Shown here: positions 6,722 through 60,329 of the stretch, one piece after another
How positions within the stretch are numbered: the first letter of the stretch is position 1
How the letters are laid out: the number at the start of each line of letters is the position of its first letter
NCBI GenBank assembly: GCA_963700155.1
Contig: OY969472.1
Location: forward strand, 598,431 to 662,430
From: an uncultured bacterium
Lineage (GTDB): Bacteria > Patescibacteriota > Dojkabacteria > J137
DNA length: 64,000 nt
Reading direction: 5' to 3'
Notes under the pieces: model-generated
What the model was told of the DNA's origin: nothing
What the model saw: only the letters and a program-made list of their open reading frames with translations
Database searches by the model: none
Made by a program: the position numbers and the translations under genes

Positions 6722-6756
6722 ATCTAGGTATAAGTTTACCCTGTTTTAAAAATTTT

Positions 6757-20196: not shown

Positions 20197-20216
20197 TAAT
20201 TTCTACCCATACTTGA

Positions 20217-25157: not shown

Positions 25158-25169
25158 TATATATTTTAA

Positions 25170-32906: not shown

Positions 32907-33602
32907 ATGTTTTTGATTAATGAATACTTAAACTTATTCCTGGATTTCATATTCCCAAAAAGATGTTATTTTTGTAAATCAACAGGAAATTATATTTGTA
33001 GAAATTGTAAAAAAAATTTAAACATAAATTTAGTCCAAAGATGTCATGTTTGTGGCAAAGAAGTAAGGTTAGGTTTTGTACATTCAGACTGCAAAGATTC
33101 TACCTATTTGGATGGACTAATTTACGTTGTTTTATACGATGGAGCAATAAAAACAATGATTAAAGACGTAAAGTACCATTTTTATTATGATATTTTGAAT
33201 GAAATTTCAGAAATAATGGCAGATCATATCTCGAAATATAATTTTGATAAAATTTTATATACATCTGTACCTCTGCATTGGAAAAAGAAAAATTATAGAG
33301 GTTTTAATCAAGCAGAATTACTTTCAAGAAAAGTTGCAAAAAGAACAAAAAAAGAATATTCAGAACTTCTAATTAGAAAGCGAAATACAATTGCACAAGC
33401 TAGTTTAGGTAGAGAAGATAGAGAGAATAATCTAAAAGAAGTTTTTGATTATGTTGGAGAGTGGAATTTAAATGAGAGGTCGATAATTTTAGTTGATGAT
33501 GTATTTACAACAGGATCTACTTTGAATGAGTGCGCCAAAGTGCTAAAGCACTTTGGCGCACGACAGGTTTATGGATTTTGCTTCGCAAAATCCCGTGAGT
33601 AA
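32907..33602 (+). CDS. comFC: ComF/ComFC-family phosphoribosyltransferase-domain protein
   Basis: N-terminal 4-Cys finger (CYFC...CRNC...CHVC) and C-terminal PRT motif 'ILVDDVFTTGSTLNE'. Confidence 0.7.
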   Translation: MFLINEYLNLFLDFIFPKRCYFCKSTGNYICRNCKKNLNINLVQRCHVCGKEVRLGFVHSDCKDSTYLDGLIYVVLYDGAIKTMIKDVKYHFYYDILNEISEIMADHISKYNFDKILYTSVPLHWKKKNYRGFNQAELLSRKVAKRTKKEYSELLIRKRNTIAQASLGREDRENNLKEVFDYVGEWNLNERSIILVDDVFTTGSTLNECAKVLKHFGARQVYGFCFAKSRE

Positions 33603-45258: not shown

Positions 45259-45858
45259 ATGACAAATAATAGTCTAGTACAGCAGCCAATAAAGAAAACT
45301 GCCTATATAGTTTATAATGATATTATAGATGAGCCTAGAATTCAGTGGTTTATGACACAATTAGGAGGGCTTTTCTCATCTAATAATTATGATAAATTTG
45401 TAATCTTAATTTCATCAAATGGTGGAGATCCAGCAGCAGGTTTGACAGCATATAATTTTTTAAGAAGTTTACCGCTAAAAGTAGTTACGCATAGTATTGG
45501 ATACGTACATTCCGCAGCAGTTATTCTTTTTCTAGCTGGAGAAGAAAGATACTCGTGTGAAGGTAGTACTTTCTTGATACATAGTATAGCATTTAACCTC
45601 CCAAATGGAGGCCAGATAACCCCAATTAATTCTGGAGATATAGATTCCGTAATCAAGGTAAATAATGAGACTGCGAGAAAGATATATAAAGAACGAACAA
45701 CTTTAACTGCACAAAAAATTACCGGATTGCTAAAATCTAACATATTACAAGATACCAAATTTGCTAAGGATTATAGTCTTATCAATGAAGTCAAACCTAT
45801 TGAAATTAAAGATGGTGATTTATTTGTTGTTAACTATATTGCCCAGGCTCCTAAGTAA
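45259..45858 (+). CDS. ClpP-family serine peptidase-like protein (divergent)
   Basis: Aligns to the ClpP core. 'ILISSNGGDPAAGLTAYNF' aligns with INSPGGSVTAGLAIYDT. 'GYVHSAAVILFLAGE' aligns with GQAASMGAFLLTAG (Ser retained). 'FLIHSI' aligns with MIHQP (His retained). A downstream Asp lies in 'QDTKF'. Confidence 0.55.
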   Translation: MTNNSLVQQPIKKTAYIVYNDIIDEPRIQWFMTQLGGLFSSNNYDKFVILISSNGGDPAAGLTAYNFLRSLPLKVVTHSIGYVHSAAVILFLAGEERYSCEGSTFLIHSIAFNLPNGGQITPINSGDIDSVIKVNNETARKIYKERTTLTAQKITGLLKSNILQDTKFAKDYSLINEVKPIEIKDGDLFVVNYIAQAPK

Positions 45859-45955
45859 ACTAGAATAGCTAGTCTATTTCTTACTAAGGCTGATTAGTGT
45901 AAAATTAGCTCAAGAAGCTATTTTAGCTTTTTGTTCTTAGCTCTTAGTTTAAAAC

Positions 45956-46288
45956 ATGTTCACATTCGCAATTAATTTTATTGTCTGGTGGTATCTAATA
46001 AAGTCTAGAGAATTCTTTACTTCAGAAGTCTTTGGTGGCTTTATATTCCAAATGAACTACACTAGAACTTTACCAATGGTGCGAAATTTTACTACACCAT
46101 TATTTAGAGATAGTTCATCTTTTGGCAAATCGATAAGTATTTTTATAAAATTTTGGTGGATAGGTTTTGGAACAATAGTAAGCTTAATAAAAATAATTCC
46201 CAAATTTCTAATATTTTTAGTGATTATTTCATTACCGATAATTCCGGTAATTCAATTCATTCTCTTTTTAACGAGAACTTTAGTATGA
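45956..46288 (+). CDS. small polytopic membrane protein (110 aa)
   Basis: Three or four hydrophobic helices; its stop overlaps the ATG of the following Clp ATPase (ATGA). Confidence 0.3.
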   Translation: MFTFAINFIVWWYLIKSREFFTSEVFGGFIFQMNYTRTLPMVRNFTTPLFRDSSSFGKSISIFIKFWWIGFGTIVSLIKIIPKFLIFLVIISLPIIPVIQFILFLTRTLV

Positions 46289-48882
46289 AAGTATTAACAG
46301 GTAAAAGACAACTTGCAACTTTTAAAAACTCATTAATCTATGTTGATTTTGATGAGCTCCTTAGATACAAAGGGGAGCGTTTATCAATTGTAAGAGCAGA
46401 GTACGGATTTGGTAGAATGTTTTTTTATGGTGGTTTATTCTTATTTTTCGGTTCTTTAATATTATTATTTCTTGCTGGTGAGTTGAAATTTAATGCTATC
46501 GTTCTGCCTATAGATATCTTGGAGTTAATGCCTAGTATTTCACTCCTCCCTATTACTTTTGGATTTTATTTATCAAGAAATAGAGATATTTTTGATCATA
46601 AAATAAAAGATAATTTGTCTGATGAAATAATCAGTAATTTTGCCTCACATGATGAAGTTACAAATAAAGAAATTGATATTTCTGTGCTAATGTCAATTAA
46701 ATTGAAGTCATTTATGGATTATGCATATTTTAATCATAATCAGGACTTTTTAATCGAAACTTTAAATTACGCGTTTTCCCAGAAGAGTAGCAATTTGTTC
46801 ATTGAAAAAAGGCTTGGATTAAATCTGGGAAGTTTGCGTGAAGCTTCAATTAAATATTTCTTAGATAAAAATACTTCATTTGATGCAATTTATTTTGATC
46901 TATTCATAAGACTTTTTGATGAAGCAGTGAAATTTGAGAGTGAAAAAATTGATGATGATATCTTATTCTTTACCTTACTTAAATATTATCTTGTAAATGT
47001 TTTATTAGATTTTGGAATAACAGAACTTGAACTAGAAGGGTTAAGACGTTGGTTTAAAAATGAAAATAAGAAAAACGAGTACTACAGAAGATGGCAGAGA
47101 TTATCTAAACTAAAACCTAAAGGAGCAATCAACAGTACTTATACTTCAAAGGCAACCCCAACTCTAGATCAGTATGGGATTGATTTTACAAATTCAATTT
47201 CAAATAGAAATTTTGTACTTACATTAGGAAAAGAGTATGAAATGGGTTTGATTTTAAATATGCTCCAGAGGGAGAATGGAACAGCGATTATGATTTTAGG
47301 AGAACCAGGGGTAGGGAAGACTCAATTTATTAAACATCTCGCAACAAGAATGGTTGTCGAAGATGTTCCAAAAACATTACAAGATTATAGATTAGTAGTT
47401 TTAGATTTAAACAAGATATTTACACAAACTTCAACAGTTGAAAATTTCAAAGTGTCAATTCAGAAAATGGTAGATGAGGTCAAAAACTCAGGAAATATTA
47501 TTATTTGCTTCGAAGAAATTAGTCAAATATTCAATATTAGGGATGAGGGGAAACTTGAAGTTATTAATCTTTTAACAAATTCTATCGATAATTCACATAT
47601 AAAAATCCTAGCAACTGCTACACCTGAAAATTACAAAGATTATATTCAACCGAATAAATCGTTTGCTTCAAAGTTCGAAAATATTACACTAAAAGAACCA
47701 GATCCTAATGTACTTTTACAAATTCTGCTTGATGAAATACCAAGGCTAGAATCTAAATATAGGGTTAGTATTCAAATTACCGCTATAAAAAGAATCGTTG
47801 AATTTGGATATAAGTTTGATTATGAACGTGCGATGCCTGATAAAGGAATAGATTTGCTTGAAGAAGCTATTGTTAATGCACAAGCAAAAGGTTTGAACTA
47901 TCTAGACTTAGATACAGTTGATGAACTATTTAAAAATAAAACAGGAGTTAATGTTGGAACAATAAGTGAAGCTGAATCCAGTAATTTGCAGAAACTTGAA
48001 AGTAAAATGCATGAAAGAGTAATAGGTCAGGATGATGCTATTCATGCTATAGCCTCAGCGATCAGAAGATCTAGATCGGGATTAAGTAATAAGAAAAGAC
48101 CGATTGCTTCATTCTTATTTTTTGGACCAACAGGTGTAGGAAAAACTGAAGTAGCCAAAACCTTGGCTGAAACTTATTATGGTGATGAAAATTTAATGAT
48201 CAGGATAGACATGTCTGAGTATCAAGAAGATAAAAATCTAGATAGATTGATAGGGTATACCGATGAGAAAGGAACTTTTAATGGGGGATATTTAACTGAG
48301 AAGGTAAAATCAAGACCATTTTCACTAATCCTTTTTGATGAAATAGAGAAGGCCAATAGAAAAGTTTTAGACTTGTTTTTACAAATTCTTGATGATGGTT
48401 TTGTAACTGATGGATTGGGAAGAAGAGTAGACTTTACAAATACAATAATAATAATGACTTCTAATGCTGGAACAAAAGAAATTACAGAGCTTTTGAATCA
48501 GGGGGTGAAATATCATGATATAGAAAGAAAAGTATTAAATATTTTAAGAGATAATTTTAAAATTGAATTTCTTAATAGATTTGATAAGTTGGTAATGTTT
48601 AAAAGCTTAAGTCAAAATGAGGTTAAAAAAATAGTTTCTTTGATGTTGAATCAGTTAAATGATAAATTAGGTGAACAAGGGATTTCAATTAGCTGGAACA
48701 AAGATACAGAAAAAGAAATTTCTCAGATAGGATATAGTGAAATTTATGGAGCTAGAGAGCTAAGAAGAGTTATACAGGAACAAATTGAAGATCAATTGGC
48801 AGATTTAATAATCACAGGAGATTTGAAGAGTGGTAAAACTGCTGTATTTGAAGGGGTAAAAGTGGTAAAAATTAATGATTAG
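46285..48882 (+). CDS. ClpA/ClpC-type double AAA+ unfoldase with an unusual ~330-aa N-terminal domain containing TM helices
   Basis: The probable start is the ATG at 46285 (MKVLTGKRQ...); the 46153 start lies in a region overlapping the previous ORF. D1 is 'ILGEPGVGKTQFIKHLATRMVVEDVPKTLQDYRLVVLDL' with 'MPDKGIDLLEEA'. D2 is 'FGPTGVGKTEVAKTLAE', 'SLILFDEIEKANRKVLDLFLQILDDGFVTDGLGRRVDFTNTIIIMTSN'. The linker is short (ClpA/C-like, not ClpB). The N-terminal TMs are 'RMFFYGGLFLFFGSLILLFLAG' and 'LMPSISLLPITFGFYL'. Confidence 0.75.
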   Translation: MKVLTGKRQLATFKNSLIYVDFDELLRYKGERLSIVRAEYGFGRMFFYGGLFLFFGSLILLFLAGELKFNAIVLPIDILELMPSISLLPITFGFYLSRNRDIFDHKIKDNLSDEIISNFASHDEVTNKEIDISVLMSIKLKSFMDYAYFNHNQDFLIETLNYAFSQKSSNLFIEKRLGLNLGSLREASIKYFLDKNTSFDAIYFDLFIRLFDEAVKFESEKIDDDILFFTLLKYYLVNVLLDFGITELELEGLRRWFKNENKKNEYYRRWQRLSKLKPKGAINSTYTSKATPTLDQYGIDFTNSISNRNFVLTLGKEYEMGLILNMLQRENGTAIMILGEPGVGKTQFIKHLATRMVVEDVPKTLQDYRLVVLDLNKIFTQTSTVENFKVSIQKMVDEVKNSGNIIICFEEISQIFNIRDEGKLEVINLLTNSIDNSHIKILATATPENYKDYIQPNKSFASKFENITLKEPDPNVLLQILLDEIPRLESKYRVSIQITAIKRIVEFGYKFDYERAMPDKGIDLLEEAIVNAQAKGLNYLDLDTVDELFKNKTGVNVGTISEAESSNLQKLESKMHERVIGQDDAIHAIASAIRRSRSGLSNKKRPIASFLFFGPTGVGKTEVAKTLAETYYGDENLMIRIDMSEYQEDKNLDRLIGYTDEKGTFNGGYLTEKVKSRPFSLILFDEIEKANRKVLDLFLQILDDGFVTDGLGRRVDFTNTIIIMTSNAGTKEITELLNQGVKYHDIERKVLNILRDNFKIEFLNRFDKLVMFKSLSQNEVKKIVSLMLNQLNDKLGEQGISISWNKDTEKEISQIGYSEIYGARELRRVIQEQIEDQLADLIITGDLKSGKTAVFEGVKVVKIND

Positions 48883-48908
48883 CAATTTTAGTTATTAAAA
48901 ATGCATAC

Positions 48909-49271
48909 GTGAAAAAATTAAAAGGAACAATATTAACTTTACTAGTTGTTTATATAGGTTATCCTGCAATTGTATTTGCACAAAATGTTGGGCAAGTAAC
49001 AATACCAAATCCCTCAGGTTATAATAGTCTTGAAGAATTGATTAATGCAGGATTAAGTTTATTGAGACCACTTTTTATAGTTACTTTTGCGGCAATGATT
49101 ATGTATGGAGCTTGGACTTGGTTAACTTCACAAGGAGATGCAGAAAAGATTGGAAGAGCTCGAAAAATAATCATTGCCGCAGTCATAGGTTTTGCAATTG
49201 CTGTATTGGCACCATCTATAGCCGGAATTGTTGCAAACTTTATTAAATTACAAGGATTTAATGGAATATAA
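48909..49271 (+). CDS. small secreted two-helix hairpin protein, paralogue 1 (VirB2/TrbC-like topology; candidate pilin)
   Basis: Signal peptide 'MKKLKGTILTLLVVYIGYPAIVFA', then 'FAAMIMYGAWTWLTSQGDAEKIGRARKIIIAAVIGFAIAVLAPSIAGIV'. This is a TM, a short charged loop, and a second TM. Confidence 0.45.
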   Translation: MKKLKGTILTLLVVYIGYPAIVFAQNVGQVTIPNPSGYNSLEELINAGLSLLRPLFIVTFAAMIMYGAWTWLTSQGDAEKIGRARKIIIAAVIGFAIAVLAPSIAGIVANFIKLQGFNGI

Positions 49272-50106
49272 ATTTAGTAATAAATTAAAAAGCTTTACAA
49301 TAATAATCTTTATAGGATTCATTTTTGTATTCGGATCGTTTATTTATACCCATAAAGCATATGCTTCAATAATATGTTCAGGTGATACAGGGCCTTGTTC
49401 TGGAATGGCTGTTGGAAGGGATGGATGTTATTCAGGTGGTATTCCTAGTGTTTGTGAACCAAAGGATTTTAATTCTGGACCTACAAATAGTGCTGTTAGT
49501 TGTCAATGCGTACAATCAAATCAAGATGTCTTACAACAAATTGATACATGGAACAATAAATATGCAACTTCGTCAGCATCATCTTGTGAAAATGGTATTC
49601 CTTCAGCTTGTACTGATAGTTATGTACCTGATTTTGCATGTATTAATAAGAAGATTATAGATCCTGGATATGCTTGCTGTGAAAATACATGCATAGATTC
49701 TTCAGGCAATCCAACTTCAGGAGTATCTGATCCAGGGTTAGAGAAATATAGAGAGTTTGGGATATTAGGATTAACAGTTAAAATAACTCCTGAAAGTATA
49801 CCATCACTTATTAATGTATTGTTATCTACTTTCTTGGGAATAATCGCTCTATATGCATTGTTTAGAGGAATTTATGTAGCGGCTATAAAAAGAACTCAAG
49901 CTACAGAAGAAAATCTTGAAGCTGTTAATAAGGAGCTGACAAATATAGTGATAGCATTTGTTATTGCTTTTGCATCAATCTTTATTATTCAGTTAGTATT
50001 TAATTTACTTGGACTAGGGTCTTTAAATAAATTTAATGTAAACTTTACGAATGAAGATACTAGCGGACCTGCTTTAGTTATAAATAGTAATGGCTCTCAA
50101 CAATAA
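49261..50106 (+). CDS. hairpin-protein paralogue 2 with an N-terminal Cys-rich (16 Cys) ectodomain
   Basis: The probable start is the ATG at 49261, overlapping the paralogue-1 stop. The ectodomain is 'CSGDTGPCSGM...CQCVQ...CENGIPSACTD...ACCENTCID'. The C-terminal hairpin is 'LSTFLGIIALYALFRGIYVAAIKRTQATEENLEAVNKELTNIVIAFVIAFASIFII'. Confidence 0.45.
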   Translation: MEYKFSNKLKSFTIIIFIGFIFVFGSFIYTHKAYASIICSGDTGPCSGMAVGRDGCYSGGIPSVCEPKDFNSGPTNSAVSCQCVQSNQDVLQQIDTWNNKYATSSASSCENGIPSACTDSYVPDFACINKKIIDPGYACCENTCIDSSGNPTSGVSDPGLEKYREFGILGLTVKITPESIPSLINVLLSTFLGIIALYALFRGIYVAAIKRTQATEENLEAVNKELTNIVIAFVIAFASIFIIQLVFNLLGLGSLNKFNVNFTNEDTSGPALVINSNGSQQ

Positions 50107-50123
50107 ATTAGTTTATTTATATT

Positions 50124-50663
50124 ATGAAAAAAAATATTTTAAAAATTTCAGGTTTTATTTTTCTTTTTGTGACATTAACCTTAAATTTGATAGTATATGC
50201 TGCTAATAATGATGCTAATTTAAATGTAGGTGATCTTAATCTACAGTCAATAAGAATTCCACTTTTCCTGCCATTTGATCCTAAATTCGGATCCTCTTTA
50301 ACAGTATTTTCATGGATAACTTATATTGGGATAATTGCTACTGGAGCTATAATTGTTTTCTGGATATATTTAATCATTAGAACTGCAGTAAAAGCAATGC
50401 AGAGTCATGGAGAAGCTGATGCATTGGCAGATGTAAGTAAAAGATTTAGATCAATTTTTATAGGAATGTTTATAACATTCCTTTTCCCAATAGTATTAAG
50501 TGTAATAGGTGTTTTATTAGGAGTAGGTACGATATTCGCTTGGCCAAAAATGTTTAGTCGTTGTGATAATCATAGCGGAAGTACAGGTTATGAGTACTAT
50601 TTTCAAGCGTATCTTGAGTTAGGTGGGGATGATGCTGATGTTCGTTGCGGTTATACAACTTAA
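50124..50663 (+). CDS. hairpin-protein paralogue 3
   Basis: Signal peptide, then 'IIATGAIIVFWIYLIIRTAVKAMQSHGEADALADVSKRFRSIFIGMFITFLFPIVLSV', then a Cys-containing tail. Confidence 0.45.
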   Translation: MKKNILKISGFIFLFVTLTLNLIVYAANNDANLNVGDLNLQSIRIPLFLPFDPKFGSSLTVFSWITYIGIIATGAIIVFWIYLIIRTAVKAMQSHGEADALADVSKRFRSIFIGMFITFLFPIVLSVIGVLLGVGTIFAWPKMFSRCDNHSGSTGYEYYFQAYLELGGDDADVRCGYTT

Positions 50664-50694
50664 ATAATAATTAATCCTTAAATATTAATATAAA

Positions 50695-51162
50695 TTGAAA
50701 AAACCTAAGAATTTAAAATCTAACCTAGCTAAAAGTTTACTCTATTTTTCTATAATTGGATTACTATTTCCAGTTATAGCTTACGCAGATGATAATACAG
50801 GAGGATTGTGCGGAATTCTTCCTTGTCAATTAGCATCTCCATGTCTTGGGACAAACTGTGGTGGTGATTCACTTTCGCTTGTTGGAACTTTATTAGAATT
50901 TGCTTTAAGTTTTATATTTGTCGGGATTTTAATTTTTGGAATATGGCTAATCCTTCAAGCTACCTTAAAGATAATTAGAAGTGAGGGGAATGAAGAGCAA
51001 GTTCAATCTGGGTACAAACTAATTAAAGGAGCTTATACTGGAATAGTATTAATATTTGTTGGAATAATTGGATTAGTTGTAGTTTTTGCATTATTTAATG
51101 CAACTGATATTTTTAAAGTAGGGACGGGAAATATACCAGAATTATCAGCACCAACTCAGTGA
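50695..51162 (+). CDS. hairpin-protein paralogue 4
   Basis: Signal peptide, a CGILPCQ...CLGTNCGG Cys knot, then 'FVGILIFGIWLILQATLKIIRSEGNEEQVQSGYKLIKGAYTGIVLIFVGIIGLVVV'. Confidence 0.45.
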   Translation: MKKPKNLKSNLAKSLLYFSIIGLLFPVIAYADDNTGGLCGILPCQLASPCLGTNCGGDSLSLVGTLLEFALSFIFVGILIFGIWLILQATLKIIRSEGNEEQVQSGYKLIKGAYTGIVLIFVGIIGLVVVFALFNATDIFKVGTGNIPELSAPTQ

Positions 51163-51242
51163 TTAAATTATAAAGTAATAACTTGATTTCATCTTTATAT
51201 TGTGTTTTAATGATGAAAATTAATATATGTTAGTTTAAAAAA

Positions 51243-51674
51243 ATGCCAGTATTATTAGCTCAAGCAGGAACAGCTCCATCAGGGAATTTAGTTTGTAAAG
51301 TGTTTCCTTTTCTACAGAATATAAAATTTGATTATATTCAACAACTTTGTGGAACTGGACAAGAAATTACATCTCAAACAGCTGTTCAACAAGGAGTTCT
51401 ATTAGTGCAAACATTAGTCAGTCTTATTTTTGTAGGAATAATAATAATTGCAGTTTATGTAATTATTAAAGCTGCAATCAAGTATATTAGAAGTGAAGGA
51501 AATGATGAAAAGATTCAAGAAGCTCAGAAAGCAATTAAGAGTGTATTTATTGGTTTAGTTGCTTTATTTGTAGGAATAATAGGTTTAGTATTAATACTTG
51601 TAATCTTCAATGCATTAGGTGCAGTAAATAGCGCTACAGTAAATGATACTGGAGATATTGTTCGGCCTACATAA
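51243..51674 (+). CDS. hairpin-protein paralogue 5
   Basis: 'FVGIIIIAVYVIIKAAIKYIRSEGNDEKIQEAQKAIKSVFIGLVALFVGIIGLVLI' is near-identical in pattern to paralogue 4; there is no obvious signal peptide at the listed start. Confidence 0.4.
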   Translation: MPVLLAQAGTAPSGNLVCKVFPFLQNIKFDYIQQLCGTGQEITSQTAVQQGVLLVQTLVSLIFVGIIIIAVYVIIKAAIKYIRSEGNDEKIQEAQKAIKSVFIGLVALFVGIIGLVLILVIFNALGAVNSATVNDTGDIVRPT

Positions 51675-51708
51675 TAAATACTTAAAAGTAGATTTTAAAA
51701 GGTAAGAA

Positions 51709-52488
51709 ATGCAGATGTTCTCAAAAAAGATTTTAATAACATCGCTTCTTACCTTTTTGTTTTTAAATTTCTTTCTTACATTTGTTTCAGCTCAAATTCA
51801 AACGACTCCTTTTTCAGGAAATGATGCTTCCAGCTATCAATGTATTGGGAAAAACGGACAAATTGAGCCTAATGCAAAAGTTCAAAAAGATTCAGTAACT
51901 AATAATTTTGTTTGTTATAACGCAGATGGAAGTATTATAGATAGAGATGGAAATGGCAAACCGGATCAAGCAATATTAAAACCTGTTGCCCTTGAACAAA
52001 TTCAAATTTGGTTTGTAAGAATAATTTATGTTATTTGGGCATTGGTTGGAACTTATTCATTCTTATTATTGGTATATTTAGGCTATCAATATATGCTTAG
52101 AGGAGGGACCTCAGATGAAGAATTAGTTAAACTACGAAAAAGAATAATCTACTATGTAATAGGATTTGCATTGGTATTTTTAGCAATTCCAATTCTTTCA
52201 ACTGTTTTTAGGCTTTTAAATATTAATACTGCAGTAGATTGTTATAATGTTAATATCCCAACTTTTCAGTTTTTCTTTGCAACACTTTGTACAGATCCAA
52301 ATGAAATTATTGTAGGTGAGCCATGTAACGTAGAAAACTGGCAAAGCGGAGCTGCTGTAGGGTTAGCATGTCCTACTAATGGTGAGGCGCATGGGTGTCC
52401 TACAGATTCATTACCTTTGATTTGTTATTACTGTAGCGGGAACATATGGAATAAAGGGACAATTTTCAACTCGCAATGTAGGCAATAA
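51709..52488 (+). CDS. hairpin-protein paralogue 6 with a C-terminal Cys-rich domain
   Basis: Signal peptide 'MQMFSKKILITSLLTFLFLNFFLTFVSA'. The hairpin is 'VIWALVGTYSFLLLVYLGYQYMLRGGTSDEELVKLRKRIIYYVIGFALVFLAIPIL'. The Cys-rich tail is 'CYNVN...CTDPN...CNVEN...CPTNGEAHGCPTDSLPLICYYCSG'. Confidence 0.45.
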   Translation: MQMFSKKILITSLLTFLFLNFFLTFVSAQIQTTPFSGNDASSYQCIGKNGQIEPNAKVQKDSVTNNFVCYNADGSIIDRDGNGKPDQAILKPVALEQIQIWFVRIIYVIWALVGTYSFLLLVYLGYQYMLRGGTSDEELVKLRKRIIYYVIGFALVFLAIPILSTVFRLLNINTAVDCYNVNIPTFQFFFATLCTDPNEIIVGEPCNVENWQSGAAVGLACPTNGEAHGCPTDSLPLICYYCSGNIWNKGTIFNSQCRQ

Positions 52489-52566
52489 TTATATCCTAAG
52501 TGTTGTAACAAAATGTCAAACTTTCGTAATTTCTTTTTTTCATATACAATGTGTTAGTTAACTACT

Positions 52567-54141
52567 TTGCTTAACTTTAAAACTATGGCTTTAAAAATTT
52601 TATCAATCGAAATAAAAGATTCTAGGGTAAACTTTCAGAAGAAATATGAATTTGCCGAAGAATTATTTGTAAGACAAAGTGAAGCGGTTTTAATTCTTCA
52701 AAATATTTTGAACTTTATTTCAATACCGAATAGAAATCTGATCGAAGCTACAACCGAAGTTCAGATCGATTCTGATTTAATTAAGATTTATAAATCATAT
52801 TCTACAAACTCTGTTAAATATTTTATTAACAATAAGGAAGAAAATATAGACATATATAAGTGGCTGTCAGAGAAACTGAAATTGACAATAGATCCACCAT
52901 CATGGGGAAGCAGGTTTATTGATTTAAAAAATGAGAATGTTCAAAATATTGATGATTTGAATAAGCTGTTCAGAAATAAAGATGCGATTTTGCAGCCTTC
53001 TTCTGAACTCCTTCAGAAGAAGGCTGCTTTGACAGCTCAATTTGAGAAGTTAAGATTGGAATCGATTAAGGGATTAACTCAAGAACAAGTTCAAAAAAGC
53101 GATAGGTTGCGTGAAGTTAAATTACGAATAGATAGTATTCAAAAAGAAGTTGATGCTTATCAATCAGAAAAAACTGGGAAAGAAGATTTAGATTCAAATA
53201 TTAGAAATAAAGAGCAGGAACTAAGTACGATAAATGAAAAATTACAATCAGTAGAATCATTAAAGATCTCCAAGCAAAAAGCTGTTCAAGAGCTTCAAAA
53301 ATACAATTCTGTTTCAAATGTACAAAATTCTTCTGATTTAAAAAACGAAAAGATACAAAAACTTGAACAATCGCTGTACGGAGCCTTTACTAAACCAGTC
53401 CACAAAAGCATATCTGATGATGAGGCAGATGAATCTAAATTAAATTTGAAAAAAGTGCTCCTTATCATTCAAATCCCATTTACCTTAACTGTATTAATTA
53501 TTTTTTATCTATTAGTAAAACAAGAGTTAATTCTTTTAATAGGTTTTCTTTTGATAGTTTTAGAATTTGCTTATACTATTTTTGAATTCCAGAAAAAGCC
53601 TAAAGAGGACTTAAATCTTTTACAGCCGGAATCTCCACAACAGAATCAACAAGATGATATATCAGTTAACCTTAACCAAGATCAGATATTAATAAAACAA
53701 GCTTGGAGAGGAGCATATGAACAAGAATTGAACAGAATTGATCAATTAATTTCATCTAATCTAGATGGTAAAAGTTATGAGGATATGCAAAGTGAAAAAT
53801 CTAAGATAGATAATGAAATCGCACAGTTAAAAAAACAACAGGAAGATTTAGAAAAAAATAGTTTGGATTCTGAGAGTTACTATAAAAAGAGAAGAGAGTT
53901 AGATATTTTAAAAATTGAAAAAGAGAATCTTGAATTTGGGTCAAATATACAAATACCAAATGAAGATCAGCTAAATAATTTGAGTCTTCAGCTAGATCAA
54001 ATAGATGAAGATATTGATTCGATTGAAGATATAAGAAGCTCTTTGCCTTTTATAATAATTAATATAAAAGATTCAATAAAAGAAATGCTAAAGAATTTAT
54101 CTTTAAGAAGGCAGATTATTTTAATTAGTAGCAGGAAATGA
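52567..54141 (+). CDS. coiled-coil protein with a central TM hairpin (524 aa)
   Basis: Long heptad-rich Q/E/K regions on both sides of 'VLLIIQIPFTLTVLIIFYLLVKQELILLIGFLLIVLEFAYTIF'. The N-terminus 'MALKILSIEIKDSRVNF' resembles an SMC/SbcC head but has no P-loop. Confidence 0.4.
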   Translation: MLNFKTMALKILSIEIKDSRVNFQKKYEFAEELFVRQSEAVLILQNILNFISIPNRNLIEATTEVQIDSDLIKIYKSYSTNSVKYFINNKEENIDIYKWLSEKLKLTIDPPSWGSRFIDLKNENVQNIDDLNKLFRNKDAILQPSSELLQKKAALTAQFEKLRLESIKGLTQEQVQKSDRLREVKLRIDSIQKEVDAYQSEKTGKEDLDSNIRNKEQELSTINEKLQSVESLKISKQKAVQELQKYNSVSNVQNSSDLKNEKIQKLEQSLYGAFTKPVHKSISDDEADESKLNLKKVLLIIQIPFTLTVLIIFYLLVKQELILLIGFLLIVLEFAYTIFEFQKKPKEDLNLLQPESPQQNQQDDISVNLNQDQILIKQAWRGAYEQELNRIDQLISSNLDGKSYEDMQSEKSKIDNEIAQLKKQQEDLEKNSLDSESYYKKRRELDILKIEKENLEFGSNIQIPNEDQLNNLSLQLDQIDEDIDSIEDIRSSLPFIIINIKDSIKEMLKNLSLRRQIILISSRK

Positions 54142-55913
54142 AAGAAAGATTAAGAGTTGCGGCTATAATAACTTTAATAATCTTTACACTAACTAGCAGT
54201 GTAGTTTTTGCCAGATCTTCTTCAGATATCCAAAAAGATATAGATAAACAACAGCAGGAGCTTCAACAAACAGAAGATGATTTGAATGCTGCCAAAAATA
54301 ACCTTGATTATTATAATGGTGCTTTATCACAGGCGAGTGGAGGAGTTCCGCAGCTTGAGGCTCAAATAAAACAGATAGAGGCACAGATTGAATATAATCA
54401 AAAACAGTTGGATTTATTAAAGCAGAGCAAAGATTTAAAAGAGCTTGAGAAGGCACAAAAGGAAGCTGAAAGACAGGAATCCTTAAAAAGTAATTATATG
54501 ACTTGGAGATCAAGGTCAATTGGATTTGTGCAGTTTTTGAATGATGAATATGATTTCAAAAAGAATGAACAGTACAGCGATTTGATTTTAAATCGTCAGC
54601 AAAATAATATTATGGGATTGAACTCAGAGCTTACTGTAATCAATGCTGATATAGACCAGTATGCAACAAAAAAGGCGGACTTAGAGAAGTCAAATACAGA
54701 TTTGCAAAAACAAAAACAAGATCTAGAAAATCAAATCGCGTACTATAACTCTCAAATTAACTATAACAGCAGCAGCATTAGTAATTTAGAAAATAATATT
54801 AACAGTATTCAAAAAACTATCTCGCTTTTATCTGGTGAACAAAAAGATGCTTATCTTAAAGAGGCTGAACTTGCCCAACAGGCAGGTAATGGGGGCCAAA
54901 GTATTGGAGGGTGCGTAACTTCAGATGATGGAAATAATGATAATAATATTCAATTTTGCGGAGTTGGAAATGATTTTGTTCAAGGACATGGTGTGGGTAT
55001 GAGCCAGTGGGGAGCAAATGGGATGGCCTTAAAAGGCTTTAGTGCTAATGAGATAACGCAGTTTTATTATACTGGAGTTCAAGTTGCTACTGGATATCAG
55101 AATAGAACTGTTAATGTGGAAGGGTATGGAACAATAAATGTTGAAGATTATGTTGCAGGACAAGGAGAGGTGCCGGGAAGAGCATGCGGAACGCAACAGC
55201 AAGCAAATCAAAATCCAAGCAAGTATGTTGTAGATAATCCGAACTCTTCTTGGGATTGTTGGCCAGAAGAGGCAATTAAAGCTCAGGCAATTGCATTTAG
55301 AACTTATGGACTTTATTATGCTGGCTTCTTGCATGCAGATGCAAGAAGCCAGGTCTACAACGGTTCCCATTATTCACAATGGGCTGCTGATGAGACTAAA
55401 GGTAAAGTCTTAACTTCTGGTGGTCAAATAATTGAAGCTTTGTATTCTGCAGATAATAATCAAGGCTTCGGAACTGCTAATAATGAAACTATATTTCAAG
55501 ATTTTGCTGGAAATGGTACAGCTATATCATATCTTAGATCAGTTAATGATAATGCTATGGCTACTTATACTAGTTACACCAATTGGGGGTATAGAAGTAA
55601 TACTTATACAATGAATGATATTTATAATATGATGAATTGGACCATTTCAAATGATGGAGGAGGCTTTGCCAGTTTTTTGCAAGGTATAAAAAATCAACTT
55701 GGGGCAAAGCCTACAAAGATTTCATTTATAAGAGATCCTTCACTTAGAGTAGCAAAGGTAAAGCTTCAAACTCAGAGTGGTAACTCAGCAATAATAGGTG
55801 CGTGGTGGTTTACGTATATGTACAATGTTTATAATAGCAGTCATAATGTGAAGACTCCTGAAGGTAATAAGGACTGGCTTTGGAGTCAGACATTCTTCGT
55901 GCATGTAAAGTAG
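54138..55913 (+). CDS. secreted coiled-coil protein with a C-terminal SpoIID/LytB-type peptidoglycan-hydrolase domain
   Basis: Signal/TM 'VAAIITLIIFTLTSSVVFA', ~230 aa of coiled coil, then 'FCGVGNDFVQGHGVGMSQWGANGMALKGFSANEI...QAIAFRTYGLYY' (SpoIID hallmark HGVGMSQ-GA). Overlaps the upstream gene by 4 nt. Confidence 0.6.
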   Translation: MKERLRVAAIITLIIFTLTSSVVFARSSSDIQKDIDKQQQELQQTEDDLNAAKNNLDYYNGALSQASGGVPQLEAQIKQIEAQIEYNQKQLDLLKQSKDLKELEKAQKEAERQESLKSNYMTWRSRSIGFVQFLNDEYDFKKNEQYSDLILNRQQNNIMGLNSELTVINADIDQYATKKADLEKSNTDLQKQKQDLENQIAYYNSQINYNSSSISNLENNINSIQKTISLLSGEQKDAYLKEAELAQQAGNGGQSIGGCVTSDDGNNDNNIQFCGVGNDFVQGHGVGMSQWGANGMALKGFSANEITQFYYTGVQVATGYQNRTVNVEGYGTINVEDYVAGQGEVPGRACGTQQQANQNPSKYVVDNPNSSWDCWPEEAIKAQAIAFRTYGLYYAGFLHADARSQVYNGSHYSQWAADETKGKVLTSGGQIIEALYSADNNQGFGTANNETIFQDFAGNGTAISYLRSVNDNAMATYTSYTNWGYRSNTYTMNDIYNMMNWTISNDGGGFASFLQGIKNQLGAKPTKISFIRDPSLRVAKVKLQTQSGNSAIIGAWWFTYMYNVYNSSHNVKTPEGNKDWLWSQTFFVHVK

Positions 55914-55971
55914 AAGGAATATTATTTTACTTCCCAAATACCCAGTAGAGTGGAGTTTCTTTAAATAGAGT

Positions 55972-56000
55972 CTAGAATCAACAATTCTAGTATTTAATTT
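55972..56000 (+). terminator. candidate rho-independent terminator after the SpoIID-domain gene
   Basis: CTAGAAT-CAACA-ATTCTAG followed by TATTTAATTT. Confidence 0.35.
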
Positions 56001-56461
56001 CCCTGCAATATTTAAAATTCCTATATAAGGTCCTCTCAGAACATTGTTAGAGTTTTAAAATATGTTCTTCGAGCAAGGTAGTTATTTAATAAGCTTAAAA
56101 ACTTGTTTAAGGGTTAGCTAGAGATATTTATTACAGTGTATTTATATATACTATTTACCTTATGAGGTCTCCCTTTTATTAGATTCTTGGCGTAATGAAT
56201 ATCATATACAAGACTAATAATTAACGTTTTGAATAGATATTCTTTAGAATACTGTATTTTCTTAATCAAAGTATCCACAATCTACGATCAAAGTTACATA
56301 GATGTAATTCTATTTAACAATTTATGTCAACTTATGGAAACTTTAGTATAATTAATAATAGTACAAACGCCAATTATCAATGACAGTTTTTAAGTGTGAA
56401 ACATTTACAAAAGTAAATTTAGCTTATAAATGCTAAAATAGGATAAATTTAATCAATTAAG

Positions 56462-57151
56462 ATGAATAATCAAGAAAGTGGTGTAAAAACTCCCATGAAT
56501 CTTTCAAATAAACCTCCTAGGCCATTTAACAGAGGTTTAGCTCAAGTAGTTGACGAAGAGTTAGAAAGAGTAGTTCCTGAAAAGGTTTCAAAATGGTTTG
56601 GAAGTCTTTCTTATAGACCTAAGGCTACTTTCTTTTCTAATCAGAATCCAGAAGAGAAAGTCTACTTATTATTAAGAAGACATTGGATAAAAAACCTCGG
56701 ATGGATAATAAGTAATACTTTCTACGCTTTTGTACCGATAATTATTCTTGTTATATCAGATGCCTTAAGAATTTCTCTTGATTTTATAAGCTTTAAAGTC
56801 TATTTCATTATAATATTGGCATATTATTCAGTTATTCTTACTAATGTACTTAGAAACTTCTATGACTGGTACTTTGATATTTATATAGTTACTAATGAGA
56901 GAGTTTTAGAATATTCATTTAGTCCTTTTGTATCATATAGTATTTTAGAAGCAGAATTAGAAAGCATTCAGGATGTAAAAGAGAGTGCAAATGGAGTAGT
57001 TGCTGATATTTTCAGCTACGGAGATTTACGGATAACAACTGCCTCAAGGCTAGGAGAGCTCTTTTTTGATTCAATTCCAAGTTCGACAGAAGTTCGTAAT
57101 ATTTTAATGGATCTTGTAGAAATTATTGACGAATATAAACATGAACTTTGA
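56462..57151 (+). CDS. membrane protein with bacterial PH (bPH_2/YdbT-like) domain
   Basis: 'YLLLRRHWIKNLGWIISNTFYAFVPIIILVIS' TM pair, followed by 'YFDIYIVTNERVLEYSF...GDLRITTAS', typical of DUF304/bPH_2. Confidence 0.45.
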   Translation: MNNQESGVKTPMNLSNKPPRPFNRGLAQVVDEELERVVPEKVSKWFGSLSYRPKATFFSNQNPEEKVYLLLRRHWIKNLGWIISNTFYAFVPIIILVISDALRISLDFISFKVYFIIILAYYSVILTNVLRNFYDWYFDIYIVTNERVLEYSFSPFVSYSILEAELESIQDVKESANGVVADIFSYGDLRITTASRLGELFFDSIPSSTEVRNILMDLVEIIDEYKHEL

Positions 57152-57362
57152 TATAAATATAAATAACAACTTAATACAATTTGCAAAAATAGTAGCTTTA
57201 TTCTTTGCTATGTTCCATCTTTTGGTTGGTTTCGTACTTTATAGAAGAGTAGCCAGAATAAATAAAATTTTAACTACTTCTAGATCCTGGCTGATTACTT
57301 CAATGAATATAACCTATATCGTCATTCTGATTCTTCTAATCATTTTGATTATTGTTGCCTAA
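57126..57362 (+). CDS. small two-TM membrane protein (78 aa; VirB3-like size and topology)
   Basis: Hydrophobicity only: 'IVALFFAMFHLLVGFVLY' and 'ITYIVILILLIILIIVA'. Confidence 0.3.
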   Translation: MTNINMNFDININNNLIQFAKIVALFFAMFHLLVGFVLYRRVARINKILTTSRSWLITSMNITYIVILILLIILIIVA

Positions 57363-57455
57363 AGGGATATTATTAATTAAATTTAGGGTTTAATATATTA
57401 ACTTCTAATGCAATTTTGATATACTGAACTTGAATTTAATCTAACTGGATTTTTT

Positions 57456-59852
57456 ATGAATATAAAAGCCGAATACCTTGTAGGTAAACAAAAGAATAAT
57501 GAATGGGCAGGAGTTTATGGTTATAGGCCTGAAAGTGATACTGATAAAAGTAAAGCAGAAATGTTTGCTGTTACTAGAATACAAACAGATGCTGAAGTTG
57601 ATAATCTTGAAAGAGTTGCAAAAATGCTTCTTGATGAACTTCAACAGAATTTTTACTCCGATGAAGAGTCTAAAGATGAAATCTTAAGAATTGAACATGC
57701 TTTCAACAAAATGAAAGCGAAATTAGAAGTAATACTTTCAAGGGAAGAGGAAATCCAGGAGAAAGGTCTTGATATTGAGATTGCAGCAGCATTTTTGCTA
57801 GATGATGTACTTTATGTTGGGGTTGTCGGCGAAAGTAAGGTTTTTATATTTAGAAATGATAAATTTGTAGATATAACAAGAGCATTAGTTGATGCTAATA
57901 TGTCTGGATTTATTAAAACTGGTAGTTTAAAGGTCCAGGATGACGACATATTTTGTTTAGCAACCTCCAAAGTAGCTGCTGATTCTGAGGCTTTGCAGAA
58001 TGGAGTGTCCAAATTGAATACAGAATTAATGGCAGAGCTCAAAGATATTGAAGGATCTGCAATATTATTATTTGCTGATGAGTCACTACAATGGAATAAG
58101 ACTGTTGAATTCCAAGATGAAAAAATGACAGAAGAAGCTTCAATTGATCAAACAGTTGAAGAAGAAAAAGACTTCTCCTCTCAAGATTTTGCCCCAGAAT
58201 TTTCGGAAGATAATCAAGAAGTACAACAATTAAGTCCTGTTGTAGGTGCTGTTCCAAATACTCCAATAGGAGATAATAATATTGTTGAAAATGAAAATAA
58301 GTTCTCAGAATTCAATGAGGAAGAAAATTCTGAAGATGAAGGTGAATATATTGAGACTGAAGAAAATGCAGATTTAAGTGGAAGATCACAAATGGCTAAT
58401 AAGCTTACAAATCAAGTTGGTAATATAAAAACTAAATTATTCTCAATTTTCAGTAATGTAAAAACTAAAGGATCTAATTTTGCCGATAATTCAGACACTG
58501 GAAGTAAGAAGACTTATATAAAAATAATAAGCGATATTATTACCTGGATAAAAAATGGAATAACATCACTAATAAATATGTTTAAGCGCGAAATCTTAGG
58601 GCAGGGAATTGATCGAACAAACAGAGTACTTTATCAGAATAAGTTACAAAGAAACAGGAAGATTTTGTTTATAGTATTAGTTATTGCGGTAATATTTATT
58701 TATATTGGATTAAAAGATGCAGAATCAAGACGGATTGAAGCTGAGAGAATTGATAATGCGAGAACAGAGCTTACTCAGTTACAAAATGATTTCGCGCCTT
58801 TGAACTCCCAGGTTGAAACAGTAAAAACACAAGCTCAAGCTAAAAAAGATATTCTAATTTCAAGTTTAGATAATATTATTAATGAAGCAGAATCACAAAA
58901 GAGTACTGGTTTGTTGACGAATGATCTAAATGATTTAATTACTCAAGCAAATCAAGCAAAAGACAATGTCCAGTTAATAAAAGAAGTAAATTCTGAAAAT
59001 ATACAGGTAATTTCGGATATTGGGAAAGTTCATGCAGATTCAGAACCTACTGGTATTGTATTTACGAATGGTAATATATTCGTAAGTGATAATAAAAGAG
59101 GTGTAATATATAAAATAACTCCAAATGTTAACTCTGATCCAACAGAATTTGTTAAAAACTTAACAAGTCCTAATGTACTTACAAAAAATTCAGCTGGAGA
59201 TATAATTTTCTATGACAGTGATTCTTCAACTGCAATAGCAAAAGTAAATCCTAAATCTGGTGAAGTTTATCGATTTCCTTATTTATCTACCGGGGTTATA
59301 GGCACAATTACTAAGGCTGCTGTATATAGTGGGAATGATGCTTTATATGAAATTCATCAGGATCACCAGCAGATATTTAAAAGGGATAAAGATGGACAAA
59401 ACTATTTTGGAGGTGGGGCGATTTATTCAACAGTTAATCCACCTAACTGGAAAACAGATCCAGAATTTTCAAAAGCAATTGATATAGCAGCACCTTACGA
59501 GATATATGTATTAATCCAAGGTGGAGGGTTAAGAAGATATCTTGCTGGCGGAGATAATTCGTTAACTTATGATACTTTCTCGAATTTCGCGCAAAGTGAT
59601 TATAATGCTATAAATGATGCAACAGCAATCGATGTCGATGGAAAGTATTTAGCAGTAGCAGATCCAAAGAACAAAAGAGTATTAGTGTTCGAAATACAGG
59701 ATAATGATCAGAAGAATTTGCGATTTACTAAGCAATTCGTTTATAGAGGAGATGATAATACTTTTAGTAACATTACAGAATTGGCTGTAAGTGAGGCAAA
59801 TAATGAAGTATTTGTTCTCGATGGAACTAAAGTAGTTAAATTAAATTTATAG
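57456..59852 (+). CDS. large bitopic membrane protein: cytoplasmic alpha/beta N-domain, acidic linker, TM, extracytoplasmic coiled coil and NHL/beta-propeller-like C-domain (798 aa)
   Basis: TM 'KILFIVLVIAVIFIYIGL' at ~residue 400. The C-terminus has repeated 'SD...GVIYKIT', 'AVADPKNKRVLVFE' and 'NEVFVLDGTKVVKL' blades. Confidence 0.4.
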   Translation: MNIKAEYLVGKQKNNEWAGVYGYRPESDTDKSKAEMFAVTRIQTDAEVDNLERVAKMLLDELQQNFYSDEESKDEILRIEHAFNKMKAKLEVILSREEEIQEKGLDIEIAAAFLLDDVLYVGVVGESKVFIFRNDKFVDITRALVDANMSGFIKTGSLKVQDDDIFCLATSKVAADSEALQNGVSKLNTELMAELKDIEGSAILLFADESLQWNKTVEFQDEKMTEEASIDQTVEEEKDFSSQDFAPEFSEDNQEVQQLSPVVGAVPNTPIGDNNIVENENKFSEFNEEENSEDEGEYIETEENADLSGRSQMANKLTNQVGNIKTKLFSIFSNVKTKGSNFADNSDTGSKKTYIKIISDIITWIKNGITSLINMFKREILGQGIDRTNRVLYQNKLQRNRKILFIVLVIAVIFIYIGLKDAESRRIEAERIDNARTELTQLQNDFAPLNSQVETVKTQAQAKKDILISSLDNIINEAESQKSTGLLTNDLNDLITQANQAKDNVQLIKEVNSENIQVISDIGKVHADSEPTGIVFTNGNIFVSDNKRGVIYKITPNVNSDPTEFVKNLTSPNVLTKNSAGDIIFYDSDSSTAIAKVNPKSGEVYRFPYLSTGVIGTITKAAVYSGNDALYEIHQDHQQIFKRDKDGQNYFGGGAIYSTVNPPNWKTDPEFSKAIDIAAPYEIYVLIQGGGLRRYLAGGDNSLTYDTFSNFAQSDYNAINDATAIDVDGKYLAVADPKNKRVLVFEIQDNDQKNLRFTKQFVYRGDDNTFSNITELAVSEANNEVFVLDGTKVVKLNL

Positions 59853-59873: not shown

Positions 59874-60329
59874 ATGAAAAGCTTAAGCAGTAACAAAAAA
59901 GCACACTTTGATTATGAAGTTTTAGATAAAATTGAAGCAGGGATTTCCTTATTTGGATGGGAAGTTAAATCAATAAAAGCTGGTTCAATGTCTTTATCGT
60001 CTTCATTTGTAATAATCAGAGATGGTGAGGTTTATATAATCGATAGCTTTGTCCCTTCATGGAAATCTGCACCAAAAGAGAGTAAAGAAGTTGAGAATCG
60101 AAAGAGGAAATTATTAATGACAAAATCAGAGATACATAGCCTTGAAGGAAAATTAAAACAAACTGGATTTTCTGCTGTTCCTTTAGAGATTTATGAAAAT
60201 GAAAAAGGGATAATAAAAGTTACTGTTGCTGTTGTAAGGGGTAAAAAAAGATTTGATAAGAGAAGGAAGTTAAAAGAGAAAGATTTAAAAAGAAGAGTGG
60301 AGTCTGAAAGAAAACAATATAATTTTTAA
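59874..60329 (+). CDS. smpB: SsrA-binding protein SmpB
   Basis: 'FDYEVLDKIEAGISLFGWEVKSIKAG' and basic C-terminal tail; 151 aa. Confidence 0.85.
   Translation: MKSLSSNKKAHFDYEVLDKIEAGISLFGWEVKSIKAGSMSLSSSFVIIRDGEVYIIDSFVPSWKSAPKESKEVENRKRKLLMTKSEIHSLEGKLKQTGFSAVPLEIYENEKGIIKVTVAVVRGKKRFDKRRKLKEKDLKRRVESERKQYNF

Follow-up and report, generated by a model that had tools for sequence, protein, structure and literature searches.

A 64,000-nucleotide (nt) stretch of a Candidatus Dojkabacteria genome, the window to which all coordinates without a locus label refer, carries a tandem array of six genes for small membrane proteins at 48909-52488, and it is the identity of these proteins that is considered here. 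The listing of open reading frames (ORFs) gives six co-oriented genes, p1 to p6, on the plus strand (Table 1), so that the six tandem hairpin proteins described at this place from the letters alone (the sequence-only reading) were borne out. The genes follow one another at a spacing of -11 to 80 nt, there is no ORF of at least 60 amino acids (aa) on the opposite strand within the array, and p1 starts with a GTG codon. The ORF of p2 opens at a TTG at 49228, which would give 292 aa, and holds an ATG at 49261, which gives 281 aa. The second start is the likely one; it agrees with the public annotation of an identical 15-kb contig, in which the same six genes are found with a p2 of 281 aa. A scan of 45800-57500 for promoters and terminators returned counts no better than chance and no plus-strand terminator inside the array.

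For the comparison between species, the SpoIID-like gene downstream of the array was used as an anchor, which led to 24 related Dojkabacteria (WS6) loci, denoted by L-numbers. Ortholog counts refer to the ten other arrays besides that of the window.

Architecture of the six proteins

By hydropathy, all six proteins have two long hydrophobic segments separated by a short loop of the type S-x-G-(D/N)-x-E-K, and the shared hairpin architecture that had been proposed, together with the loops quoted for it, is therefore present throughout the array. Signal peptides were judged by inspection of the hydropathy and of A-x-A-like sites, and the leaders are predicted to end at VFA/Q in p1, AYA/S in p2, VYA/A in p3, AYA/D in p4 and VSA/Q in p6 (the slash marks the end of the leader). 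This supports the earlier count of five signal peptides among six proteins, with p5 as the exception. An in-frame TAG lies 12 nt upstream of the p5 ATG, and in 51231-51245 this TAG breaks what would be a leader, MMKINIC*FKKMPVLLAQA. The p5 orthologs in L010 and L014 are likewise leaderless and begin just ahead of a conserved cysteine (Cys) pair; a p5 whose signal peptide has apparently been lost is thus a recurrent form in the clade.

From p1 to p6 the proteins contain 0, 12, 2, 4, 2 and 10 Cys, all of them outside the hairpin, either before helix 1 or after helix 2. p1 is the only Cys-free member and every other one has conserved extracytoplasmic Cys. The Cys-rich ectodomains that had been assigned to p2 and p6 are present, with 12 and 10 Cys and not 16 and 9, and their Cys are not a distinction of these two proteins, as p3, p4 and p5 also carry 2-4 outside the hairpin.

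Each member has features of its own. p1 consists of the signal peptide, an exposed N-terminal tail of about 15 residues and the helical hairpin. In p2, the hairpin takes up about residues 179-256 of 281 and all 12 Cys precede it, following the signal peptide, and the alignment of its orthologs shows a conserved C-x-C core ahead of the hairpin. An exhaustive search found only 89 relatives of p2 among 1.84 billion representatives and 88 of these align from about residue 90-105 onward, indicating that the extra N-terminal Cys-rich stretch of the window protein is rare. In p3, C147 and C175 are invariant in 10 orthologs and the C-terminal tail is conserved (W-P..F..C ... YYFQ ... C). p4 has its 4 Cys in the N-terminal exposed segment and the loop IRSEGNEE; Cys pairs are conserved among the p4 and p5 orthologs, and that of p5 lies before the hairpin. 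p6 has 2 Cys in an N-terminal beta-rich domain, its hairpin at residues 95-169 and 8 Cys in a C-terminal domain. In an alignment of 88 p6 sequences, four Cys do not vary (C178, C194, C221 and C242), three more (C45, C69 and C230) are conserved in at least 90%, and the group shares the motif CY...FQFFF...CTDP. Across the array the hairpins are better conserved than the remaining parts, with a mean identity of 32-43% versus 19-31%.

Structure prediction agreed with this layout. The AlphaFold2 (AF2) model of p1 has a leader helix, a disordered tail of 20 residues and helices at 41-72 and 78-117 with a predicted local distance difference test score (pLDDT) of 85-93. The p6 model, built from the 88-sequence alignment, has a mean pLDDT of 81.7. 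Its hairpin helices span residues 95-130 and 136-169. The N-terminal domain is small and rich in beta structure, with pLDDT block means of 84-96, and the C-terminal domain, which also contains beta structure, scores 77-90 except for the last nine residues (74). The linker at 170-200 is poorly defined (about 52). Superposed on TrwL, the p6 hairpin deviates by 2.7 A over 67 of 69 residues. Fold searches were non-discriminating, and Foldseek with the p1 model against the PDB returned only generic helical hairpins at E about 1.

Homology and family assignment

Pairwise, the only clear relationship within the array is that of p4 with p5 (46-49% identity, E 1e-16 to 1e-24), while the remaining pairs are 20-33% identical, in register over the hairpin. 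As hydrophobic hairpins can align by composition alone, the alignments of the ortholog groups were compared profile to profile with hhalign, and the same profiles with their column order reversed served as the control. A probability of 93.7-99.9% was obtained for 14 of the 15 group pairs and 74% for p2-p4, with p4-p5 at 99.9% and p3 at 99% to p4/p5. The reversed controls gave at most 5% in 13 pairs, and the worst were p2-p4 (45%) and p2-p5 (19%). When hidden Markov models (HMMs) of the groups were run against all window ORFs of at least 50 aa from the two strands, matches at E<=1 were confined to the six array members and included none of the other membrane proteins of the window. These comparisons indicate that the six proteins are homologous.

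The only family that recurs across the array and in every ortholog group is PF18895, "Type IV secretion system pilin". Its curated gathering threshold of 26.6 bits is reached by window p1 (31.7 bits) and p6 (26.9 bits), and p5 is just below it (22.5 bits, E 1.2e-4). At E<=0.1, PF18895 is matched by 7 of 10 p2 orthologs (best 5.4e-9), 2 of 10 p3 orthologs (best 0.024), 18 of 30 proteins of the p4/p5 subfamily and 9 of 10 p6 orthologs (best 6.1e-11), and all eight database homologs of p1 are annotated with it. By these searches p3 is the weakest member at the level of single sequences. In hhalign, the p2, p3, p4 and p5 groups align with the p1 group at 97.4-97.8% (p2 at 97.8%, p3 at 97.5-97.8%) versus 0.1-0.2% for the reversed profiles, and for this reason we accept the homology of the sub-threshold p2-p5 to p1, a bona fide member of PF18895. 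In a repeat of the comparison, p1 and p3 came out at 97.5% across 77 columns of the hairpin, and their S-x-G-D-x-E-K loops were aligned with each other.

Further matches lead to the same kind of protein. PF04956 (TrbC/VirB2) is matched by two of the ten p6 orthologs (best E 5.3e-8), although by none of the window proteins at E<=1, and P0099, a database relative of p6, is annotated with both PF18895 and PF04956. One p2 ortholog weakly matches CagC, and NCBI names some p6 orthologs "pilin". Homolog searches with the array proteins returned Dojkabacteria proteins only. The sequence-only reading had proposed paralogous VirB2/TrbC-like pilins of a type IV secretion system (T4SS), and this is supported by PF18895, by the PF04956 matches of the p6 orthologs and by the linkage to a T4SS-type ATPase described below. 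Its view that the family could not be named precisely does not stand, as PF18895 names it and NCBI already labels some orthologs as pilins.

Other families were considered and rejected. Type IV pilus or Flp pilins do not fit, since the N-termini are of the Sec type (MKK..., a hydrophobic core, A-x-A) without a prepilin peptidase site; the lone match to a prepilin-motif regular expression (p1 GYNSLE, residues 37-42) is located downstream of the leader, and its Gly is not kept by the orthologs. A holin or bacteriocin immunity protein, raised earlier as an assignment to be checked, found no support in the profile searches beyond a single weak Phage_holin_3_6 match of one p2 ortholog (E 0.017), and library scans of the neighbourhood revealed no phage or bacteriocin genes near the array. 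VirB3 and PrgI proteins are likewise small, hydrophobic, two-helix proteins encoded with T4SSs, but the array proteins match no VirB3 or PrgI model in Pfam or NCBIfam and, to our knowledge, VirB3 proteins have neither a cleavable signal peptide nor ectodomains.

A second family may have a bearing on the origin of the array. NF045849 (NCBIfam, the Mbov_0395 family of pilin-like conjugal transfer proteins) comes from the integrative and conjugative elements (ICEs) of Mycoplasma. Its profile is a hairpin of 80 positions and aligns over its full length with the hairpins of p2 (27.8 bits, E 1.5e-6), p1 (20.1 bits, 3.7e-4) and p6 (15.8 bits, 8e-3). No window protein reaches its curated cut-off of 40 bits. 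Among the orthologs it is matched by 7 of 10 p2 proteins (best E 5.3e-10) and 12 of 88 p6 proteins (best E 4.8e-7), and the array proteins thus appear to be related to NF045849 without being members. Both hosts are monoderm and both T4SSs are MPF_FATA-related, although the Mycoplasma copies are on mobile ICEs and mycoplasmas are wall-less. The scores are sub-threshold, but they suggest that the pilin might be of the same monoderm descent as the other parts of the system.

Gene order and neighbourhood

In six related loci (L002, L003, L008, L010, L011 and L013) the gene order is a ClpB/C-like AAA+ protein, p1-p6, a coiled-coil protein, the SpoIID-like protein, a 229-aa membrane protein, a DUF5657-like protein, a 798-aa NHL protein, SmpB, a Q-rich 200-aa protein and an 814-aa ATPase. 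L019 and L025 start at p1 and agree with this order from there, and L014 agrees as far as its sequence reaches, with GroEL and not the ClpB/C-like gene preceding p1. L024 contains pilin genes only, without p2 and p3. For p1, p2, p3 and p6, the best cross-species match is the gene at the same ordinal position in nine of the ten other arrays, and in the tenth (L024) this is still true for p1 and p6. The median cross-species score is 88-108 bits versus 25-29 bits for the best paralogue within an array. As the former are 3-4 times the latter, the duplications behind p1, p2, p3 and p6 predate the divergence of these species.

The p4/p5 subfamily is the only variable part, with one to three copies per array. 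In L008, the p5 type is present twice in tandem, at 6664-7185 and 7311-7832, as near-identical copies with the same sequence throughout the aligned core, and there are fragments at 5998-6216 and 6359-6538, which together indicate recent duplication or decay within this subfamily.

The genes downstream of the array (Table 1) include a cell-wall hydrolase and a T4SS-type ATPase, both as previously claimed. The ATPase is 8.5 kb downstream of the array in the window and about 8-9 kb downstream in eight related loci; linkage to a T4SS ATPase, on which the pilin assignment had been made to depend, accordingly holds in all eight related array loci that reach far enough.

Table 1. Genes of the p1-p6 array and genes following it in the window
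Feature	Position	Strand	Length (aa)	Remarks
p1	48909-49271	+	120	
p2	49261-50106	+	281	from likely ATG at 49261
p3	50124-50663	+	179	
p4	50695-51162	+	155	
p5	51243-51674	+	143	
p6	51709-52488	+	259	
Coiled-coil protein	52567-54141	+	524	central hydrophobic segments; no Pfam family
SpoIID/LytB-domain cell-wall enzyme	54138-55913	+		PF08486 E 1e-7; TIGR02669 101.7 bits (cut-off 83.3)
Membrane protein	56462-57151	+	229	no Pfam/NCBIfam match; downstream of SpoIID-like gene in 17 of 24 loci
Small hydrophobic protein, DUF5657-like	57126-57362	+	78	PF18901 22.1 bits (cut-off 25)
Membrane protein	57456-59852	+	798	C-terminal NHL/beta-propeller-like region; weak NHL and T2SSM matches; 16 of 24 loci
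VirB4/VirD4-superfamily ATPase	61018-63462	+	814	Pfam TrwB_AAD_bind, DUF87, TraG-D_C

An ortholog of the 524-aa coiled-coil protein is directly upstream of the SpoIID-like gene in L002, L010, L011, L013, L016, L019 and L020. The SpoIID/LytB protein has an N-terminal anchor and a coiled coil and is a candidate VirB1 analogue. The best-scoring SpoIID-like homologs, at 45-53% identity, are those of L004, L005 and L006 (match 10001-11740), which stand in a wholly different neighbourhood without the other genes of the cluster and are probably a paralogous copy of the enzyme. The 78-aa DUF5657-like protein is conserved in L002, L003, L008, L010 and L013, its gene overlaps the end of the 229-aa gene, and it might be the missing VirB3-like component. 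Between the NHL-propeller protein and the ATPase is smpB (59874-60329), a housekeeping gene and tmRNA partner, which has the same placement in every related Dojkabacteria locus that covers the position.

The 814-aa ATPase has one N-terminal hydrophobic, probably transmembrane segment, and, as in VirB4, an N-terminal domain (350 residues) precedes the Walker A motif, which lies at about residue 386. Its NCBIfam matches are weak, to TraD/VirD4/TraG and VirB4 models, and the best PDB matches of its profile, DotL (1.3e-5) and TrwB (4e-4), are restricted to the Walker A region. L003 encodes another ATPase of the VirB4/VirD4 superfamily at 62-1282. It shares 36% identity with the 814-aa protein and precedes the ClpB/C-like gene by about 0.9 kb, and a small membrane-protein ORF lies between the two. 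In the window the position of this other ATPase is occupied by ClpP and GroES/EL.

Upstream of the array, a ClpB/ClpC-like double-AAA+ protein (46153-48882, likely start about 46285) ends 26 nt before p1 and carries, depending on its start, an N-terminal extension of about 290-330 residues containing hydrophobic segments. This putative membrane-anchored unfoldase might act on the pilins. Its gene adjoins p1 also in L002, L003, L008 and L010. A conserved membrane-protein ORF of about 105-110 aa (45956-46288; L003 homologue at 1834-2151) overlaps its annotated start, and ClpP is nearby at 45259-45858. A ComF-like protein (double zinc ribbon and phosphoribosyltransferase; 32907-33602) and YidC (34785-35645) are encoded 14-16 kb upstream of the array, and YidC is the likely insertase for leaderless or short-tailed hairpin proteins. 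Further away, 15214-29591 on the minus strand encodes four large proteins (1660, 507, 978 and 1473 aa) with Laminin_G_3, purple-acid-phosphatase-N and fn3 domains, at a GC content of 0.34-0.37, slightly above the rest of the window; in this they resemble the giant adhesins that epibiotic Patescibacteria typically bear on their surface. A scan for DnaA boxes gave chance-level counts with no cluster near 30 kb, and a fine GC-skew profile, examined for proximity to an origin, had no clear switch point.

The array as a probable set of T4SS pilins

Taken together, we read p1-p6 as paralogous VirB2-type pilins (PF18895) of a chromosomal T4SS of the kind typical of Patescibacteria, with a probability of about 0.75. 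What the sequences show is the membership in the family, the build of leader and hairpin, the restriction of Cys to the parts outside the two helices, and the conservation of gene order and positional orthologs between species. The pre-proteins would be exported by Sec/YidC and their helical hairpins held in the cytoplasmic membrane, with a predicted topology that places both termini outside and the short charged loop on the cytoplasmic side. A VirB4-family ATPase could then extract the hairpins and polymerise them into a tubular pilus or conduit, which would pass the wall where the neighbouring SpoIID-type lytic enzyme has opened it and would reach the host cell on which the epibionts depend. 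In VirB2-type subunits both termini lie on the outer face of the filament, and therefore the Cys-rich N-terminal modules of p2 and p6 and the C-terminal modules of p3 and p6 may decorate its surface or tip. p1 is likely to be the major subunit because it is small, Cys-free, best conserved and encoded by the first gene, and p2-p6 would be specialised minor subunits, such as tip, adhesin, base or adaptor. In our reading, the array would be a fixed, non-redundant set in which only the copy number of p4/p5 is free to vary.

Several points weigh against this interpretation. Taken singly, window p2 (10.8 bits), p3 (10.5 bits) and p4 (no match at E<=1) are below the PF18895 threshold, and the p1-group profile retrieved no pilin among solved structures, its sole match being an ABC transporter at E 0.18. 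Agrobacterium VirB2, however, retrieves only itself in such a search, so sequence searches of solved structures cannot see pilin relationships; a tblastn search of plasmids with VirB2 returned almost only Rhizobiales copies and a few from acetic-acid bacteria, too narrow a set for a family alignment. Searches of the window with Pfam and NCBIfam recognised no canonical T4SS part besides the ATPase, neither VirB3/PrgI nor VirB6 nor VirB8, and the weak matches of the 814-aa ATPase lean to coupling proteins and not to VirB4. There is no pilin within 10 kb upstream of the anchor gene in L007, L016 and L020, which retain the block from SpoIID to the ATPase, nor at the loci of the SpoIID paralogue (L004-L006), and a relaxed HMM search of the flanks of L004-L007, L009, L012, L016-L018 and L020 returned noise and no pilins. 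As pilins are missing upstream in the more distant Dojkabacteria, the adjacency of the array to the SpoIID-ATPase block is clade-specific. The division into major and minor subunits, finally, draws on size, conservation and gene order only, and the filament in Dojkabacteria is inferred.

Tandem arrays of VirB2-like pilins in the T4SS loci of Patescibacteria were described in 2023-2025 (PMC10633639, PMC12102498, PMC12857230). Quinonero-Coronel et al. (2025; PMC12102498) applied PF18895 and PF04956 to 3,035 Patescibacteria genomes and found VirB2-like pilins in 1,948 assemblies; arrays of 2-11 genes, 441 in all, were present in 383 assemblies, and the preprint of this survey counts Dojkabacteria among the T4SS-bearing lineages. 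Saccharibacteria epibionts offer the nearest parallel: Southlakia epibionticum has six essential VirB2-like pilins (PMC10633639, PMC12857230), and a 2025 review of T4SSs describes these as structurally conserved and divergent in sequence and puts forward the idea of the pilus as a conduit (PMC12857230). The arrays of S. epibionticum ML1 (SEML1_0006-0019) and Nanosynbacter lyticus TM7x (the "Sec secreted array") belong to the same Pfam family as p1-p6, PF18895. As here, they are chromosomal tandem arrays of divergent paralogues (20-49% identity in the window; a mean of 25% and a maximum of 54% in PMC12102498) near a T4SS-type ATPase and wall-degrading enzymes, and no relaxase was seen in the window either. 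The host lineage differs, and the survey (PMC12102498) names Dojkabacteria only in passing.

What the sequence-only reading recognised, correctly and independently, is thus a feature already known, and the system is not of a new kind; as the phenomenon is published, that reading overestimated its novelty. The survey criteria of PMC12102498 (i-Evalue <0.001 and >50% profile coverage) would probably score only p1, p5 and p6 here, so that the array is larger than a Pfam-only scan shows. We found no mention of positional orthology, Cys-rich ectodomains or a leaderless member in the consulted parts of PMC10633639, PMC12102498 and PMC12857230. Three aspects seem to go beyond the published accounts: the ancient and ordered set of p1, p2, p3 and p6, the conserved Cys in all members but p1, and the link to NF045849 of Mycoplasma.

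Comparison with the classical VirB2/TrbC pilins of PF04956 (Agrobacterium VirB2, R388 TrwL, RP4 TrbC) shows that both have a signal peptide followed by a hairpin (about 70 residues) whose small, charged loop includes a Gly, and that both are encoded together with a T4SS ATPase. However, the Dojkabacteria host is monoderm and without an outer-membrane core complex, there are six fixed paralogues and not one, some members have disulfide-rich ectodomains of up to about 130 residues that classical VirB2 does not have, and no VirB5 tip protein was recognised here.

Alternatively, the paralogues could be interchangeable major pilins that vary the cell surface or match it to host strains, as was suggested in PMC12102498 by analogy with the VirB2 paralogues of Bartonella and Anaplasma. 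The likeness is that several paralogues stand in tandem in one T4SS locus, and an identity of only 20-33% between paralogues, the lower conservation outside the hairpin and the changing copy number of p4/p5, with the two near-identical copies in L008, speak for such a cassette. In Bartonella and Anaplasma, however, the paralogues are read as antigenic or host-range variants of one subunit, whereas in the present array only one of the five groups varies in copy number. The other four are single-copy positional orthologs of distinct architecture, with an unchanged order in nine of the ten other arrays, and derive from duplications older than the clade. Each group also has invariant Cys and motifs of its own, and interchangeable subunits would not be expected to range from bare hairpins to proteins with an ectodomain at the N-terminus, at the C-terminus or at both ends; the pilin genes are moreover reported to be essential in S. 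epibionticum (PMC10633639). We consider this explanation unlikely. A fixed and differentiated kit is more likely than a variation cassette, with the exception of p4/p5, because of the positional orthology and the group-specific architectures.

Less likely still, the six could be membrane components of the T4SS and not pilus subunits, forming a membrane-resident or short wall-spanning channel without an extended filament, as the small hydrophobic proteins of monoderm conjugation systems may do (VirB3/PrgI-like proteins, or the "pilin-like" proteins of Mycoplasma ICEs). The VirB4 of Patescibacteria derives from the MPF_FATA systems of monoderms, which are said to be without pili (PMC12102498), p2 and p6 orthologs match NF045849, and the fold searches were non-discriminating. 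On the other hand, Sec signal peptides and Cys in the terminal segments fit the topology of VirB2 and not that of the leaderless VirB3, and the structured Cys-rich ectodomains of 60-130 residues in the models would argue for an exposed function. The direct PF04956 matches of p6 orthologs and the tubular structures, maybe T4SS pili, observed at a Patescibacterium-host interface (a 2026 preprint, bioRxiv 10.64898/2026.06.21.733656) also speak against this possibility. That the proteins are unrelated small membrane proteins (holin, immunity or membrane-remodelling proteins), with a pilin likeness due to hydrophobic composition alone, is very improbable and already disfavoured, since the scattered weak Pfam matches of the hairpins (tetraspanin, 7TM families, the one Phage_holin_3_6 match) and the 45% reversed control for p2-p4 are set against PF18895 as the sole family matched repeatedly in every group, the low reversed controls for 13 of 15 pairs, group HMMs that match no other membrane protein of the window and a neighbourhood without phage or bacteriocin genes.

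Within the pilin interpretation, a more specific proposal can be made, although we regard it as tentative and rather doubtful as a whole. The array could be an ancient, ordered and non-redundant kit for a heteromeric tube, and not a set of variants of one subunit, in which p1 would form the shaft and the disulfide-rich p2, p3 and p6 would supply VirB5/adhesin functions, with roles as tip, adhesin or contact with the host envelope. Such a kit would be of monoderm descent (MPF_FATA, Mollicutes-ICE-like) and not borrowed from diderms. If confirmed, the link to NF045849 would bear on the origin of the pilins of monoderm T4SSs, and it would qualify the statement in the literature that VirB2 homologues are missing from MPF_FATA systems.

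In the sole genetically tractable Patescibacterium, neither the T4SS nor its pilin array is dispensable, and they are the leading candidate for the conduit by which these ultra-small epibionts draw on their hosts. This basic picture is already in the literature and is unchanged by the present array. What the window adds is a clean example from Dojkabacteria, in which four single-copy groups have Cys and domains of their own and one subfamily is expandable, a fixed-set pattern that argues, for most members, against the published idea of variation for host range. It also singles out particular subunits, p1 as the shaft and p2, p3 and p6 as the bearers of exposed modules.

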